The position numbers were made by a program, and so were the translations under genes. From UHGV virus genome UHGV-1727221: 14,789 nucleotides of DNA; one strand, 5' to 3'. The notes beneath the pieces are model-generated. The model saw nothing but the letters and a program-made list of their open reading frames with translations, was not told the DNA's origin and did not search any database. Below are positions 56 to 8,785 of this stretch, piece after piece. How positions within the stretch are numbered: position 1 is the first letter of the stretch; each line of letters starts with the position of its first letter. This DNA is from a virus.

Positions 56-553
56 GTAGATAAAGGTATCAAAGCCGAACTGTTTGAATCCATGCTTGGT
101 GGATTAAAAGAGCTCTTTGTTGAACACAACGTTGTTGTTCCAGAAGAATCAGTTGATGTTGTAGCTGAAATGGAAGAAGAGCTGCAAGAACATAAAGAAG
201 AATCAGCTCGTCTGTTCGAAGAACTCAATATGCGCGACGCATATATCAATTATGTGCAGCGTGAAGTGGCATTGAGCGAAAGTACTAAAGATCTGACTGA
301 GTCTCAAAAAGAAAAAGTCTCTGCTCTGGTCGAAGGTATGGATTATTCAGATGCATTCTCAAGTAAATTGAGTGCAATCGTAGAAATGGTGAAGAAGTCT
401 AATAAAGATGAAAGCACTATTACTGAGGGTATAAATACTCCTGATACTGAAGCAGCCGGACTAAATTTCGTCACTGAAGCTGTAGAAGATAAAGCTGCAC
501 AGGGTGCAGAAGATATTGTAAGTGTATATGCGAAAGTCGCATCTCGTTTCTAA
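56..553 (+). CDS. 22: Prohead core scaffold protein gp22, C-terminal fragment (5' end truncated by the adapter junction)
   Basis: Open frame continuous from the adapter junction to TAA at 551-553; acidic, low-complexity protein ending ...SVYAKVASRF, directly upstream of gene 23 as in T4. The true N-terminus is absent. Confidence 0.8.
   Translation, partial: VDKGIKAELFESMLGGLKELFVEHNVVVPEESVDVVAEMEEELQEHKEESARLFEELNMRDAYINYVQREVALSESTKDLTESQKEKVSALVEGMDYSDAFSSKLSAIVEMVKKSNKDESTITEGINTPDTEAAGLNFVTEAVEDKAAQGAEDIVSVYAKVASRF
430..437 (+). promoter_or_regulatory. T4-type late promoter box TATAAATA inside the 3' end of gene 22, candidate late promoter for gene 23
   Basis: Exact TATAAATA at 430-437, about 135 nt upstream of the gene 23 ATG (572). 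T4 late promoters (gp55/gp33-dependent) have this -10-like consensus. Confidence 0.45.
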
Positions 554-571
554 TTTTAAAGGTTAACACAA

Positions 572-2137
572 ATGACTATCAAAACTAAAGCTGAACTTTT
601 GAACAAATGGAAGCCATTACTGGAAGGTGAAGGTTTACCGGAAATTGCTAATAGCAAACAAGCGATTATCGCTAAAATCTTTGAAAACCAGGAAAAAGAT
701 TTCCAGACAGCTCCAGAATACAAAGACGAAAAAATTGCTCAGGCATTTGGTTCTTTCTTAACAGAAGCTGAAATCGGTGGTGACCACGGTTACAATGCTA
801 CTAACATCGCTGCAGGTCAGACTTCTGGCGCAGTAACTCAGATTGGCCCAGCTGTTATGGGTATGGTACGTCGTGCTATTCCTAACCTGATTGCTTTCGA
901 TATTTGTGGTGTTCAGCCAATGAACAACCCGACTGGCCAGGTATTCGCACTGCGCGCAGTATATGGTAAAGACCCGGTCGCTTCCGGTGCTAAAGAAGCA
1001 TTCCACCCAATGTATGGTCCAGATGCAATGTTCTCTGGTCAGGGTGCTGCTAAGAAATTCCCAGCTCTGGCTGCTAATACCACTACAGTCGTAGGTGACA
1101 TTTATTCTCACTTCTTCCAGGAAACTGGTACCGTATATCTGCAAGCTTCTGCTGTCGTAACACTTGATTCTAGCGCGACTGATGCTGCTAAATTAGATGC
1201 CGAAGTTAAAAAACAAATGGAAGCTGGTGCACTGGTAGAAATCGCTGAAGGTATGGCTACTTCTATCGCTGAACTTCAGGAAGGTTTCAACGGTTCTACC
1301 GATAACCCATGGAATGAAATGGGCTTCCGTATCGATAAACAAGTTATCGAAGCTAAATCTCGTCAGCTGAAAGCTGCTTACTCTATCGAATTAGCACAAG
1401 ACCTCCGCGCTGTTCACGGTATGGATGCTGATGCTGAACTGTCTGGTATTCTGGCTACAGAAATTATGCTGGAAATCAACCGCGAAGTTGTTGATTGGAT
1501 TAACTACTCAGCTCAGGTTGGTAAATCTGGTATGACCCTGACTCCGGGTTCTAAAGCTGGTGTATTTGACTTCCAGGACCCAATCGATATTCGTGGTGCT
1601 CGCTGGGCAGGTGAATCCTTTAAAGCTCTGTTGTTCCAGATTGACAAAGAAGCAGTTGAAATTGCTCGTCAGACTGGTCGTGGTGAAGGTAACTTCATTA
1701 TCGCTTCCCGTAACGTAGTTAACGTTCTGGCTTCAGTTGATACCGGCATTTCTTATGCTGCACAGGGTCTGGCTACCGGCTTCAACACTGATACTACCAA
1801 GTCAGTATTTGCTGGTGTTCTGGGTGGTAAATACCGTGTATATATCGACCAGTATGCTAAACAGGATTATTTCACTGTAGGTTATAAAGGTCCGAACGAA
1901 ATGGATGCTGGTATTTACTATGCTCCATATGTAGCTCTGACTCCGCTGCGTGGTTCCGATCCGAAGAACTTCCAACCGGTAATGGGATTCAAAACTCGTT
2001 ACGGTATCGGTATCAACCCATTTGCAGAATCCGCTGCTCAGGCTCCGGCTTCTCGCATCCAGAGCGGTATGCCTTCTATTCTGAATAGCCTTGGTAAAAA
2101 CGCTTACTTCCGCCGTGTATATGTTAAAGGTATCTAA
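572..2137 (+). CDS. 23: Major capsid protein gp23 (precursor)
   Basis: 521-aa ORF beginning MTIKTKAELLNKWKPLLEGEGLPEIANSKQAIIAKIFENQ and ending RRVYVKGI, near-identical to T4 gp23 as I recall it (also 521 aa); AAGG Shine-Dalgarno upstream. Confidence 0.97.
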   Translation: MTIKTKAELLNKWKPLLEGEGLPEIANSKQAIIAKIFENQEKDFQTAPEYKDEKIAQAFGSFLTEAEIGGDHGYNATNIAAGQTSGAVTQIGPAVMGMVRRAIPNLIAFDICGVQPMNNPTGQVFALRAVYGKDPVASGAKEAFHPMYGPDAMFSGQGAAKKFPALAANTTTVVGDIYSHFFQETGTVYLQASAVVTLDSSATDAAKLDAEVKKQMEAGALVEIAEGMATSIAELQEGFNGSTDNPWNEMGFRIDKQVIEAKSRQLKAAYSIELAQDLRAVHGMDADAELSGILATEIMLEINREVVDWINYSAQVGKSGMTLTPGSKAGVFDFQDPIDIRGARWAGESFKALLFQIDKEAVEIARQTGRGEGNFIIASRNVVNVLASVDTGISYAAQGLATGFNTDTTKSVFAGVLGGKYRVYIDQYAKQDYFTVGYKGPNEMDAGIYYAPYVALTPLRGSDPKNFQPVMGFKTRYGIGINPFAESAAQAPASRIQSGMPSILNSLGKNAYFRRVYVKGI

Positions 2138-2150
2138 TCTTTGACGATTT

Positions 2151-3534: not shown

Positions 3535-4538
3535 TAGCTCAACAACTCAATCCAAGCTGGACGAAGTACATCTTGTACCATTTTAACTAATTCCTTTTTA
3601 ATCAAAGAAGGATTATCTGCTTGAGTTAGAGTAATACCTTCACGAGAAGTTTCTTCCAAAATATCTTGGACAGTTAGACCCATCACCTTTCCAAAATCCT
3701 TTGGACCAATTTCACCAATTTTAGAAATAACGTTATTTACCCGGTTCAGTGTAACGTAACAAGCTAAAATTCCCACCAATTTGTTATCAGCTTCTGATAG
3801 CTCAACTTTAGCTTTAATAGGCTTATCAGACTTTTTCTTTTCACTAAATTTGGAATTCTTGCATTTAATTGCTACACGATTTCCATTATGAAGCCAAGAA
3901 GGATAACAAGGTTTCAATACATATCCTTCAGCAGTAAATACTTCGCCTTTTGCTTCGGCATTCCAAACGCATTTATTTGCATCAACTAATCCAGCATGGT
4001 CTACTGTAAAATTATAATCTTGGACGACAGAATCTAAATCATTTGGCAATTTAATAAGTTCTTCAAATTTACCGCGACCTAAAAGTGGAGCAATTTTAAA
4101 TTTAAATGTATTACAGAATGATTCCATCATATAATCGTCGACATAAGTCACATCACCACTTTCTGTAGTGACAATAATGTCAAATACATAAAAATCTTTA
4201 TCGCCATAATCGACATTCTTCTGAATGCCAGGTCCAGCGAATTCGCCAAAGACTTGATAAGATACAACCGCTGAGGTTTCCATAATATCTTGTACTGCTT
4301 TAATGGAATCAGCGTAATTCTTTAGAATAATTTCATACCCAAAGAAATCTTCAGCGGGAAGAATCGGTCCAGTACGCTTAGCGCAAGTTACTTTATCACG
4401 CTCAATAATCAATGAGAAATTTGTGCCGTGAATCTTTTCACGAGCTACCCACTCCCCACCAGTCAATCCCAAGCTATAAAGTTTTTCAATAAATTTAGAG
4501 TTGTAATGATTTTCAAGACTGCTATACTTTTTAAACAT
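3534..4538 (-). CDS. rnlB: RNA ligase 2 (Rnl2; ATP-dependent nick-sealing RNA ligase)
   Basis: 334-aa ORF matching T4 Rnl2 in length and sequence as recalled; covalent nucleotidyltransferase motif I KIHGTN (Lys35), motif IV-like EGYVLK and motif V-like AIKCKN are present. Confidence 0.95.
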
Positions 4539-4547
4539 AATTAATCC

Positions 4548-4826
4548 TCAAAATGTAATTTCTAACCAATCACCATCACGCTGATCACTATTGACTTTAA
4601 AGCTAAATCCTTCTTTTCTCAGCCAATCACCAATTTCTTCAGTAATCAATTTATCACGAGCAATACAATAATAACTAAAATGCGTTTTACCTTGTTCAGC
4701 TGCTTTATTAGCAAGTTCCGAAAAATCTTTAATAAAGCACTCTAGTTTAAACTGTTTACTTTTGAATGCTTTTTCGCGTAATTGATTAGCAAAAGATTCA
4801 TTTTCATAAAGATCATACTGTTCCAT
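4548..4826 (-). CDS. 24.2: Small hypothetical protein (T4 24.2 position)
   Basis: 92-aa ORF immediately downstream of rnlB on the same strand, 10-nt gap; the name is assigned from position in the T4 gene order, not from a recognised motif. Confidence 0.55.
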   Translation of the reverse strand: MEQYDLYENESFANQLREKAFKSKQFKLECFIKDFSELANKAAEQGKTHFSYYCIARDKLITEEIGDWLRKEGFSFKVNSDQRDGDWLEITF

Positions 4827-5028
4827 TTTTCACCTTTTTATTGATATGTCTTTTTCTATAGACAACTTTTTCTCGAGTTTCAAATTTATTCTTAGCAGTC
4901 ATAGCTCGAGCCCATAATACAGCCACTTCTTTTGCCTGTAAGTTCAATTCACGAGCAATTTCAATGAATGACTTTCCAGACTCATGAAGAGTAAACACCA
5001 CAACCTCAGTTCTCATAATCAATCTCAT
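4813..5028 (-). CDS. 24.3: Small hypothetical protein with a probable helix-turn-helix (T4 24.3 position)
   Basis: 71-aa ORF overlapping the 24.2 start by 14 nt; contains an HTH-like segment SGKSFIEIARELNLQAKEVAVLWARA and a basic C-terminus. Confidence 0.5.
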   Translation of the reverse strand: MRLIMRTEVVVFTLHESGKSFIEIARELNLQAKEVAVLWARAMTAKNKFETREKVVYRKRHINKKVKNGTV

Positions 5029-5095
5029 GTTATCGAGTTGGTGCCATTATATACATCATTTTCTGATTGTGTTTTGTGTGCTTTCAAAATGAAGA

Positions 5096-5113
5096 AAGGG
5101 GCCGAAGCCCCTT
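5096..5113 (-). terminator. Hairpin 4 nt downstream of the hoc stop (stem aaggggc / gcccctt; the loop reads UUCG on the minus-strand transcript)
   Basis: Inverted repeat 5096-5102 / 5107-5113 around a 4-nt loop; sits between hoc (stop 5118-5120) and the 24.3 start. Confidence 0.45.
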
Positions 5114-5117
5114 ATGA

Positions 5118-6533
5118 TTATGGATAGGTATAGATGATACCAGTTTCTAAAGCAGTTTTGTGAATGATGTATCCATTACGTGATTCTTGGACATCAACTT
5201 CTGGATAGTCTTTCATCATCTTCTGAAGAGTGTAACGATGCAAGTAATACTTACTACCCGGATCGTCAATTTTCCAATCTTTACCTTCTTCAGTCATTTT
5301 TTGGATTTCATCCATAACCCACCAACCGCACCAGATGTAAGCTGAAGTACGATGTGGAAGAGGATGAACATAAGGTAGTTCACCTTCTGGTTCAATTGGA
5401 GTCCGTTCAGCAATAACAACTTCAGCTGTTGAACTAATTGTCTTTGAAGTGTAATTATCTTTAGTTAATACTGCTTCAACTTTAATTGTATGAGTACCCG
5501 CTGAGGAGGTATCAATACTATAAGTATTAGTAGAATTACTTTCTGCTACGTTGTCTTTCTTCCAAGAGTACACAATATTAGTATCACCAGGAGCACCAGT
5601 AACAGATGCTGTTAAAGTTGCAGTTCCACCAACAGTAGTATTAACTGATGGCGGAGATAAAGAAATGGTGGCACTATTAAATGTCGCATTATTAGTTACT
5701 ACTGTTGCTTCTGCTGAAATTTCTTTTGTAACATAATTTGTTGCAGAAACAGATGCGGTGCATTTAAGAGTTTTACTTCCGACTTCGGTCGGAGTGAATT
5801 TATACGTAGCAGAAGTTGCATCCGGAATATTACTGTCATCCATTGACCATTGGAATGTTATAGTAGCACCTGAAGGTGCACTAGAGACATTTGCAGTTAA
5901 AGTAATAGGAACACCAAAGACTGTAGTCGGAGACTCGGGTGTAATTTTTAGCGTCGAAGAATTAGCCTTTTTATTTACAGTCAAAGAAACCGCTGATGAT
6001 TCTACTGTTTTATCAACGTAATCAGTTGCAGTCACTGTGACAGAGCAAGTTATAGACTTAGTTCCTTCAGTTGTTGGTGTATATTCAAAGGTTGATTGCT
6101 TTTGACCGTCAACAGCGACCCCGTCAACTTTCCATGTATAATCAATAGCAGCACCAGTAGGTTGATTGCTTACATTAGCAGTGAATGTTGTTGCTGTTCC
6201 AATTTCTACTGCTGCAGGAGAAGCCGGAGTAACAGTGATAGTGGAATTATTTTCTTTCTTATTAACAGTGATAGTTGTTGATGCTTCAGCTATTTCCGGA
6301 TCTCCTGCGGAAAGTGTATTAGTTGCAACCACTTTAATTTTTTTTGTTCCTGCTGGAGAAGCAAGAGTATAATCCATTGTAGCAGCCGTAGAGCCCTGTG
6401 TTATATCATCTACAGTCCAGACGTATGTAATAGTACCATCTGGAGTTTCACCTGCAGGTGTAGCAGTGAATGTTTGTGAACCTCCAATAACCCCTGTAGG
6501 AGTTAGAGGAGATAACGTGACAGTGAATGCCAT
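5118..6533 (-). CDS. hoc: Highly immunogenic outer capsid protein Hoc, enlarged variant with four tandem Ig-like modules plus a C-terminal capsid-binding domain
   Basis: 471-aa ORF rich in Thr/Ser/Val with four repeats of about 90-95 aa (pattern T(F/L)TA(N/S)V..P.G..I.Y.W..D(D/G/N)...K.I.C.); conserved C-terminus ...YIWCGWWVMDEIQKMTEEGKDWK...IIYTYP; located between 24.3 and inh as in T4. Confidence 0.85.
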   Translation of the reverse strand: MAFTVTLSPLTPTGVIGGSQTFTATPAGETPDGTITYVWTVDDITQGSTAATMDYTLASPAGTKKIKVVATNTLSAGDPEIAEASTTITVNKKENNSTITVTPASPAAVEIGTATTFTANVSNQPTGAAIDYTWKVDGVAVDGQKQSTFEYTPTTEGTKSITCSVTVTATDYVDKTVESSAVSLTVNKKANSSTLKITPESPTTVFGVPITLTANVSSAPSGATITFQWSMDDSNIPDATSATYKFTPTEVGSKTLKCTASVSATNYVTKEISAEATVVTNNATFNSATISLSPPSVNTTVGGTATLTASVTGAPGDTNIVYSWKKDNVAESNSTNTYSIDTSSAGTHTIKVEAVLTKDNYTSKTISSTAEVVIAERTPIEPEGELPYVHPLPHRTSAYIWCGWWVMDEIQKMTEEGKDWKIDDPGSKYYLHRYTLQKMMKDYPEVDVQESRNGYIIHKTALETGIIYTYP

Positions 6534-6542
6534 AAGTTATCC

Positions 6543-7223
6543 TTATTTTAATGTTACGAAAGAAGAGTTGCGTGTTTCACGAATTAAAACTGATCCGTCA
6601 CGGTTAATGTAATAAATTAAGCTAAATAAAGTTTGGTGTGCTGACGCATGTTCAAAACTAGTTGGGTGAGATTTCCAATCAGGAGTTTCAGCAATCCATT
6701 GATAAATCCACCAAGGAACAGTACAGAATCCTGGATTTTTTCCAATCAACTGAAGATTTGGGCTAAAGTTTTCCGGAAGAGTAAATACAGACGGCTTTTC
6801 AGATTCAATAATCTCAGCTACAGCCTGTTCAAATTTTTCTTCAACAAATGGAGTATCTTCAATCAAAACTGAGGTATTTTCAGGAATTTTATCCGTTTCT
6901 ACTACTTCAATTTTAATGTCAGATTTAACCGGAGAATCAATCAAAAGTGCTGCTTCTGGATTGACTTCTTCATCGTCATATTTTAACCCCTCTGCAGCAT
7001 CAGCAGCATCAATTAAGTCTTTAATAGATAACCCATCAGTCTCCGGCATAGGTTCACTAGCGAGCTTCTGGAGGGCTTCTTCAATATCAACAACGATATT
7101 ATCAAAAGATTTATTCTTTTTGACCTTTATACCAAACTGTTCAGCATATTCAGCTAATTTAGCTTTAGCTTCTTTGTTATCATCAAGAGCCTTCAGCTCT
7201 GCAATATAATCTTTATCTATCAT
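6543..7223 (-). CDS. inh: Inhibitor of prohead protease gp21 (Inh)
   Basis: 226-aa ORF (T4 Inh is 226 aa as recalled) directly upstream of hoc on the minus strand, separated by 9 nt; acidic N-terminal half. Confidence 0.8.
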   Translation of the reverse strand: MIDKDYIAELKALDDNKEAKAKLAEYAEQFGIKVKKNKSFDNIVVDIEEALQKLASEPMPETDGLSIKDLIDAADAAEGLKYDDEEVNPEAALLIDSPVKSDIKIEVVETDKIPENTSVLIEDTPFVEEKFEQAVAEIIESEKPSVFTLPENFSPNLQLIGKNPGFCTVPWWIYQWIAETPDWKSHPTSFEHASAHQTLFSLIYYINRDGSVLIRETRNSSFVTLK

Positions 7224-7236
7224 AATATTTCCTCAG

Positions 7237-7244
7237 TATAAATA
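7237..7244 (+). promoter_or_regulatory. T4-type late promoter TATAAATA upstream of uvsW
   Basis: Exact TATAAATA at 7237-7244, 29 nt upstream of the uvsW ATG (7274), in the 50-bp inh-uvsW intergenic region. Confidence 0.5.
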
Positions 7245-7273
7245 TAGATATATTTATTACATGGTATTTAGAC

Positions 7274-8785
7274 ATGACTGACATTAAAGTACATTTTTAT
7301 GATTTTAGTCACGTGAGAATTGATTGTGAAGAAAGTACATTTCATGAACTCCGTGATTTCTTTAGCTTTGAAGCTGATGGGTATCGTTTTAATCCGAAAT
7401 ACAGATATGGCAACTGGGATGGACGAATCCGTCTTTTAGATTATAATCGTCTTCTTCCATTCGGCTTAGTCGGGCAAATTAAAAAGTTCTGTGATAACTT
7501 TGGCTATAAAGCCTGGATTGACCCGCAGATTAACGAAAAAGAAGAATTATCAAGAAAAGATTTTGATGAATGGCTTTCTAAATTAGAAATCTATTCAGGA
7601 AATAAAAGAATTGAACCACACTGGTATCAAAAAGATGCAGTGTTCGAAGGATTAGTTAATCGTCGTAGAATTCTTAATCTTCCAACATCCGCTGGTAAAT
7701 CTTTAATTCAAGCTTTGCTTGCGCGGTATTATTTGGAAAATTATGAAGGTAAAATTCTTATCATTGTTCCAACAACTGCTTTAACAACTCAGATGGCTGA
7801 TGACTTTGTTGACTATCGTTTATTCAGTCATGCAATGATAAAGAAAATCGGTGGTGGAGCATCAAAAGATGATAAATATAAAAATGATGCACCAGTCGTT
7901 GTTGGTACATGGCAAACTGTAGTAAAACAACCGAAAGAGTGGTTCTCCCAATTTGGTATGATGATGAATGATGAATGTCATCTTGCTACAGGAAAAAGTA
8001 TTTCATCTATCATATCAGGTTTAAATAACTGCATGTTCAAATTCGGTTTGTCTGGTTCATTACGTGATGGCAAAGCCAATATCATGCAGTATGTTGGAAT
8101 GTTTGGTGAAATATTTAAGCCAGTAACGACTTCTAAGTTAATGGAAGATGGACAAGTAACTGAGCTAAAAATTAATAGTATTTTTCTTCGCTATCCCGAT
8201 GAGTTCACTACTAAATTAAAGGGAAAAACTTACCAAGAAGAAATAAAAATTATTACTGGGCTTAGTAAAAGAAATAAATGGATCGCTAAATTAGCTATTA
8301 AGCTTGCGCAAAAAGATGAAAACGCTTTTGTCATGTTTAAACATGTATCGCATGGTAAAGCTATTTTCGATTTAATTAAAAATGAATACGATAAAGTTTA
8401 TTACGTATCAGGGGAAGTTGATACCGAAACCCGCAATATAATGAAAACCTTAGCTGAAAACGGTAAAGGAATAATTATAGTAGCTAGTTATGGTGTATTT
8501 TCTACTGGTATTTCAGTTAAAAATCTGCATCACGTTGTTTTAGCGCATGGTGTTAAATCAAAAATCATTGTATTACAAACAATCGGTCGTGTATTACGTA
8601 AGCATGGTTCTAAAACAATCGCAACCGTCTGGGACCTCATAGATGATTGTGGTGTTAAGCCAAAATCTGCTAATACTAAAAAGAAATATGTTCATTTGAA
8701 CTATCTTTTAAAACACGGCATTGATCGTATTCAGCGCTACGCAGATGAAAAATTTAATTACGTAATGAAAACAGTTAATTTATAA
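7274..8785 (+). CDS. uvsW: UvsW DNA/RNA helicase (SF2, recombination-repair; branch migration)
   Basis: 503-aa ORF beginning MTDIKVHFYDFSHVRIDCEE; Walker A LPTSAGKS, motif II DECH, SF2 C-terminal motifs (QTIGRVLR); matches T4 UvsW as recalled. Confidence 0.95.
   Translation: MTDIKVHFYDFSHVRIDCEESTFHELRDFFSFEADGYRFNPKYRYGNWDGRIRLLDYNRLLPFGLVGQIKKFCDNFGYKAWIDPQINEKEELSRKDFDEWLSKLEIYSGNKRIEPHWYQKDAVFEGLVNRRRILNLPTSAGKSLIQALLARYYLENYEGKILIIVPTTALTTQMADDFVDYRLFSHAMIKKIGGGASKDDKYKNDAPVVVGTWQTVVKQPKEWFSQFGMMMNDECHLATGKSISSIISGLNNCMFKFGLSGSLRDGKANIMQYVGMFGEIFKPVTTSKLMEDGQVTELKINSIFLRYPDEFTTKLKGKTYQEEIKIITGLSKRNKWIAKLAIKLAQKDENAFVMFKHVSHGKAIFDLIKNEYDKVYYVSGEVDTETRNIMKTLAENGKGIIIVASYGVFSTGISVKNLHHVVLAHGVKSKIIVLQTIGRVLRKHGSKTIATVWDLIDDCGVKPKSANTKKKYVHLNYLLKHGIDRIQRYADEKFNYVMKTVNL

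Follow-up and report, generated by a model that had tools for sequence, protein, structure and literature searches.

The 14,789-nucleotide stretch of viral DNA analysed here (UHGV virus genome UHGV-1727221, hereafter the window) carries the hoc gene of a T4-like coliphage. We estimate at roughly 93% the joint probability that this gene is an RB69-type allele, that the Hoc protein it encodes contains an extra Ig-like module of non-recent origin (named M3), that its array of Ig-like modules is an exchanged cassette, and that the protein forms a longer fibre.

The gene, predicted to encode a 471-aa highly immunogenic outer capsid (head decoration) protein, occupies positions 5118..6533 (stop codon included) of the minus strand. 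According to the list of open reading frames it is intact, beginning with ATG and comprising 471 codons followed by a stop. A putative ribosome-binding site (AAGGA) is located 7 nt 5′ of the start codon, and a consensus scan detected a terminator-like GC-rich hairpin followed by a T run at 5096..5113 (minus strand), 4 nt past the stop codon; a terminator is annotated at the equivalent position in phages DalCa and NRG-P0074. No exact match to the T4 late promoter (TATAAATA) was found on the minus strand upstream of hoc and inh, where two sites with one mismatch are present (7272-7265 and 7258-7251). The gene order in the window is 23, 24, rnlB, 24.2, 24.3, hoc, inh, uvsW, in agreement with the annotations of T4 and RB69, and the locus is colinear as judged by blastn. 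The gene is thus present at the position expected for the Hoc family, between inh and 24.3 and near genes 23 and 24.

Some other features of these surroundings were also observed. The homing-endonuclease genes segD and segE, located in T4 between 23 and 24 and between inh and uvsW, respectively, are absent from the window, short spacers being left at these positions (2149-2208 and 7261-7279). The homologue of 24.3 (ORF 4813-5028, minus strand) encodes 71 aa, compared with 56 aa in T4 and 64 aa in RB69, and it is in this homologue that identity to T4 dips to 66-72% (at ~4800-4950), the neighbouring stretch being 94-100% identical.

The initial annotation had designated the gene product Hoc, and database searches bear this out. 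The 471-aa protein matched PHROG 1149 ('Hoc-like head decoration') with an E value of 1.5e-135, and T4 Hoc (5vf3_Z, 376 aa) was its sole strong match among PDB sequences (E 7.6e-140); nothing in the sequence is at odds with the assignment. Judged by these similarities, the protein is Hoc, a head decoration protein of the T4 family. The conserved capsid-binding C-terminus mentioned in the same annotation was recovered as well. It corresponds to a predicted domain of aa 382-471 (5121..5390, minus strand), 87 of whose 90 residues are identical to residues 287-376 of T4 Hoc (3 differences) and whose last 65 residues matched PHROG 21694 (E 2.6e-40). This domain contains at aa 450-454 the Glu-Ser-Arg-Asn-Gly (ESRNG) motif that is highly conserved in the capsid-binding domain of Hoc proteins (Fokine et al. 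2023, PMC10385173, Fig. 7 legend). It gave no Pfam match and was modelled by AlphaFold2 (AF2) with low confidence (pLDDT 31-59), so that its anchoring geometry is taken from the sequence identity to T4. At the DNA level, the region encoding the domain (5118-5390) is ~92-98% identical between T4 and RB69, compared with ~45-85% for the neighbouring genes. This likeness reflects either unusually strong nucleotide-level constraint on the capsid-binding domain or a recently exchanged patch.

The part of the protein preceding the C-terminal domain consists of four tandem modules, as initially annotated. The T[FL]TA motif is found at residues 21, 116, 211 and 306, i.e. with an exact period of 95 aa, and all six module pairs aligned with scores 10-21 SD over those of shuffled controls, at 35-40% identity. 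Together, the exact period and the scores over shuffled sequences indicate that the repeat is real. The sequence signature that had been proposed for the modules does recur, but its consensus was somewhat idealised: the Cys residue of the 'K.I.C' element is limited to modules 2 and 3, and module 1 reads TFTATP. We placed the module boundaries such that M1 comprises aa 1-94 (6252..6533), M2 aa 95-190 (5964..6251), M3 aa 191-286 (5676..5963) and M4 aa 287-381 (5391..5675), all encoded on the minus strand. In an AF2 model based on a 46-sequence alignment (mean pLDDT 82.8), the region of aa 1-375 is predicted to fold into four all-beta modules of 7-8 strands each (pLDDT ~82-96), with seven strands in M1 (pLDDT 89-96), M2 (91-96) and M3 (83-95), and eight in M4 (82-90). 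The model therefore supports the presence of the N-terminal string of Ig-like domains typical of Hoc, in the form of four predicted beta-sandwich modules.

Searches of Pfam with single modules gave a match above the gathering score for M2 (PKD, E 1.6e-5). The matches obtained for M3 (PKD_4, Ig_2, Big_3_5 and PKD_3, E 0.002-0.007), which span the module, and for M4 (Ig_3, E 1.6e-5; I-set, E 2e-4) were all below the gathering scores, and no match was obtained when M1 alone was scanned; for these three modules the Ig fold is thus supported chiefly by the AF2 model and by homology among the modules. When the model was compared with the PDB using Foldseek, the top matches were four-Ig fragments (Dscam1 Ig1-4, ICAM-5 D1-D4 and Sidekick Ig1-4) aligned over ~410-440 columns, and the structure of RB49 Hoc (3SHS) was also matched (E 1e-10, 329 columns). 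The whole-chain TM-scores were low (0.17-0.33), as is expected for a flexible string of domains.

The initial annotation had further stated that T4 Hoc is 376 aa long and that the protein encoded in the window exceeds it by about 95 aa. Both statements hold: the 5vf3_Z chain contains 376 aa and the hoc gene of NC_000866 is 1131 nt, and the difference from the 471-aa protein is exactly 95 aa. Using phmmer, residues 1-190 aligned with residues 1-190 of T4 Hoc and residues 289-471 with residues 194-376, leaving aa 191-288 without a T4 counterpart and placing the number of extra residues at ~95-98. The unaligned segment corresponds to M3. M1, M2 and M4 are the orthologues of T4 modules 1, 2 and 3 (the last one), to which they are 60%, 56% and 45% identical, respectively, and M3 lies between the counterparts of T4 modules 2 and 3. 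The strands of M3 predicted by AF2 comprise residues 194-198, 203-205, 210-217, 224-231, 243-246, 252-263 and 270-281.

An extra segment with a high content of T, S, A and V, whose own Pfam matches are all below the gathering scores, might be regarded as an unstructured or low-complexity linker, in which case the protein would contain only three Ig domains. We consider this extremely improbable. AF2 places seven strands within residues 194-281 with a confidence like that of the adjacent modules; the alignment of M3 with M2 extends across the entire module (score 198, z = 21), as does that with T4 module 2 (tblastn, E ~1e-15 to 1e-20), and M3 conforms to the exact 95-aa motif period. The predicted fold and the module alignments thus lead us to reject a linker and to retain the extra Ig-like module postulated initially: with domain search and structure prediction both carried out, M3 appears folded, and an outcome of only three Ig domains plus a linker was not seen.

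The probability that the long open reading frame is an artefact of assembly or annotation, in which a collapsed or expanded repeat hides a gene of T4 size, is close to nil. Tandem repeats are prone to mis-assembly, and a frameshift splits the gene in the nearest record, that of phage NRG-P0074. However, modules that are just 35-40% identical are too divergent to mislead an assembler. In addition, an RB69-type hoc is present in 31 records of the phage collection (at least 80% gene coverage), 29 of which, independent of each other, contain the full 1416-nt gene at 95.9-99% identity, and the corresponding protein cluster (P0001) comprises 54 member sequences.

Concerning the origin of M3, the module shares 38-40% identity with M2, 37% with M4 and 34% with M1, and its nearest relatives outside its own allele are T4-class modules 2 (42-47%). 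When M3 was used as a tblastn query against the phage collection, 31 records matched with at least 90% identity and the rest with at most 47%; matches of 60-90% identity were not present in this collection, and all matches listed fall inside hoc genes. Likewise, no Hoc allele having a module 2 or 3 that is more than 70% identical to M3 was found in the collection. These results suggest that M3 is a distinct, old and divergent module type that is specific to the RB69-type allele, and not a recent duplicate; it may have a slight affinity to the middle-module class.

The fourth module could alternatively have arisen by a recent tandem duplication of module 2 (or 3) in this phage lineage. M2 and M3 are indeed the top-scoring internal pair, and recent duplication accounts for other four-module Hoc proteins: modules 2 and 3 of the 472-aa protein P0016 share 80% identity with one another and 81-85% with T4 module 2, and modules 3 and 4 of Marfa Hoc (L005 201-1616) share 77% with one another and 55% with T4 module 3. 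For M3, though, such an event is very unlikely. M3 is no closer to M2 and M4 than unrelated module classes are to one another, and the module is present at 90-100% identity in 31 records belonging to two genera, RB69 included, which indicates that M3 is older than the phage studied here. We therefore keep to the reading of M3 as an old, allele-specific module.

The fourth module of Marfa Hoc appears to have been gained when the last (T4 module 3-class) Ig module was recently duplicated, which suggests an independent route to a length of 471 aa. Based on module genealogies that consist of identities over ~95 aa and a neighbour-joining tree without support values, four-module Hoc proteins would have arisen at least three times independently, i.e. 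through the RB69-type M3, through duplication of the T4-type module 2, and through duplication of module 3 in Marfa. A five-module protein of 567 aa (P0002, a cluster of 24 member sequences) contains T4-type modules 1 (91%) and 2 (79%) followed by RB69-type modules 2 (91%), 3 (96%) and 4 (99%). It is encoded on the 93-kb Logan contig SRR17833564_4194 (L006 4001-5704), where the lengths of the neighbouring genes match those of RB69, a Mosigvirus-like context. This hybrid order is as expected from an out-of-register crossover between the two alleles. Two shorter proteins also look module-shuffled: P0011 (376 aa) combines RB69-type modules 1 and 2 with a T4-type module 3, and P0004 (379 aa) combines a first module resembling T4-class module 2 with RB69-type modules 3 and 4.

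Taken as a whole, the window shares 96-97% identity with Tequatrovirus genomes (Paracelsus, DalCa, T2 and RB27), and it shows the same level of identity (96-97%) to T4 over genes 23 and 24 and from uvsW onward. Sliding identity and informative sites delimit within it a patch of RB69-like (Mosigvirus-type) DNA at positions 5292..6530, which spans the whole Ig array. Inside the patch, sliding identity reaches 94-99% for RB69 and 0-77% for T4; outside it, the values are 95-100% for T4 and 40-88% for RB69. In a three-way alignment, identity over 5350-6550 amounts to 93-99% with RB69 and 0-77% with T4. In the flanks (4500-5350 and 6550-7250), identity with T4 is 91-100%, apart from the 66-72% dip at ~4800-4950 described above, and identity with RB69 is 40-99%, with the values of 93-99% found within the hoc C-terminal coding region (5118-5350). 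One switch of the informative sites, from RB69-like to T4-like, lies in the interval 6530-6567, where hoc starts and inh stops. At the other side, T4-like and RB69-like sites are interspersed across 5181-5265, and from 5292 onward the sites are RB69-like; this lower junction falls in the coding sequence of the C-terminal domain, in which T4 and RB69 hardly differ. Counterparts of the allele are found in the Mosigvirus NRG-P0074 (99.0% identity) and in the Tequatrovirus DalCa (98.8%).

Read from its sequence, then, the window is a T4-like (Tequatrovirus) backbone with an RB69-like (Mosigvirus) Ig-array cassette. This mosaic, together with the occurrence of the same allele in both genera, points to exchange of the Ig array between genera as a unit. 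Transfer between Mosigvirus and Tequatrovirus would take place by crossovers at the start of hoc and in the C-terminal-domain sequence, and the number of modules would shift via out-of-register recombination between modules, as may have happened in P0002. That cassette exchange and unequal recombination drive the changes in Hoc module number is a proposal to which we give slightly better than even odds. At least three independent origins of four-module proteins would hint at selection on fibre length or ligand repertoire, and M3 might be an allele-specific module with its own binding specificity. With regard to the nearest record, that of Escherichia phage NRG-P0074 (PQ480333.1; L004 301-1717), we note that its 1417-nt hoc is split by the frameshift into CDSs of 201 nt and 1215 nt, which reflects either an error in sequencing or a phage that is naturally hoc-defective.

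By homology to T4, a monomer of the protein would be anchored by its C-terminal domain at the centre of a gp23* hexamer, with ~155 copies per head. We infer this monomeric binding to the hexamer centre from the 97% identity of the binding domain and from the gene 23 region of the window (56-2148), whose DNA is 97% identical to that of T4. As in T4, the string of Ig-like modules would project outward from the capsid as an acidic fibre. The computed pI of the protein is 4.8 and every module is acidic, with a pI below 5, which matches the acidic fibre described for Hoc (PMC10385173). T4 Hoc forms 155 fibres of 180 Å, each consisting of four domains (PMC10385173); at ~45 Å per domain, the fourth Ig-like module would extend the fibre from ~180 Å to ~225 Å. 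Hoc has been proposed to mediate adhesion to bacterial or mammalian surfaces or to mucus, and to keep virions dispersed through charge repulsion (PMC10385173, PMC7602432, PMC9958956). The Hoc encoded in the window may likewise adhere weakly to glycans, to mucus and to the surface of bacteria and disperse virions by means of its charge, as proposed for T4.

As the initial annotation surmised, the extra module may alter fibre length, adherence and suitability for phage display. Hoc of T4-like phages is dispensable for infectivity. T4 nanoparticle vaccines use it as a platform for display, and it is the proposed mucus-adherence factor of T4-like phages, so that fibre length and module content are of practical relevance. 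What the present analysis adds is that M3 probably represents an old, distinct module type, that four modules appear to have been reached via several routes, and that the array seems to move between genera as a unit; these results could be of help in selecting longer Hoc proteins that occur in nature as display scaffolds.

The four-module protein itself is an ordinary RB69-type Hoc and is already known, since the RB69 hoc gene is annotated in GenBank and the variability in module number has been published. Fokine et al. (2023, PMC10385173) describe 650 Hoc homologues having 1 to 10 Ig-like domains before the conserved C-terminal domain. An explicit published module count for RB69 Hoc was not found in the literature searched. 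The annotations of the 31 records containing an RB69-type hoc vary (Hoc, head outer capsid protein, PKD domain protein). Among the best 120 Hoc clusters, 80 have lengths of 375-379 aa, 31 of 468-472 aa and nine of 567-570 aa, and these three length classes correspond to three, four and five modules. The longer T4-type Hoc proteins are common in Tequatrovirus, accounting among these 120 clusters for 29 of 472 aa and nine of 567-570 aa.

Compared with known systems, T4 Hoc (NP_049793.1; PDB 5VF3 chain Z, 8T1X, 8T9R) belongs to the same family and locus as the protein encoded in the window, but contains three Ig-like modules. The T4-type Hoc proteins of 472 aa (vB_EcoM_G10400, P0016) and 568 aa (UGKSEcP1, P0006) have four and five Ig modules, respectively, and the same C-terminal domain as the window protein; their extra modules, however, are recent copies of T4-class module 2, which are 74-85% identical to each other and to T4 module 2, and overall these proteins are just 58-60% identical to that of the window. 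Klebsiella phage Marfa Hoc (YP_009850376.1) likewise has 471 aa, four modules and the C-terminal domain. The N-terminal three Ig domains of RB49 Hoc (3SHS), to our knowledge the only crystal structure of Hoc Ig modules, match the AF2 model, although with 14% identity and with three modules instead of four. The closest known system is RB69 Hoc (NP_861884.1; hoc, RB69p194), which is also encoded by 1416 nt and 471 aa long, has 454 of the 471 residues in common with the window protein (96.1% DNA identity across all 1416 nt), and contains the same four modules, including the M3 type between a module 2-class and a module 3-class module that marks the RB69-type allele, and the same C-terminal domain. 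The neighbouring genes, inh and 24.3, are the same as well; the difference is that the genome surrounding hoc in the window is T4-like and not RB69-like.
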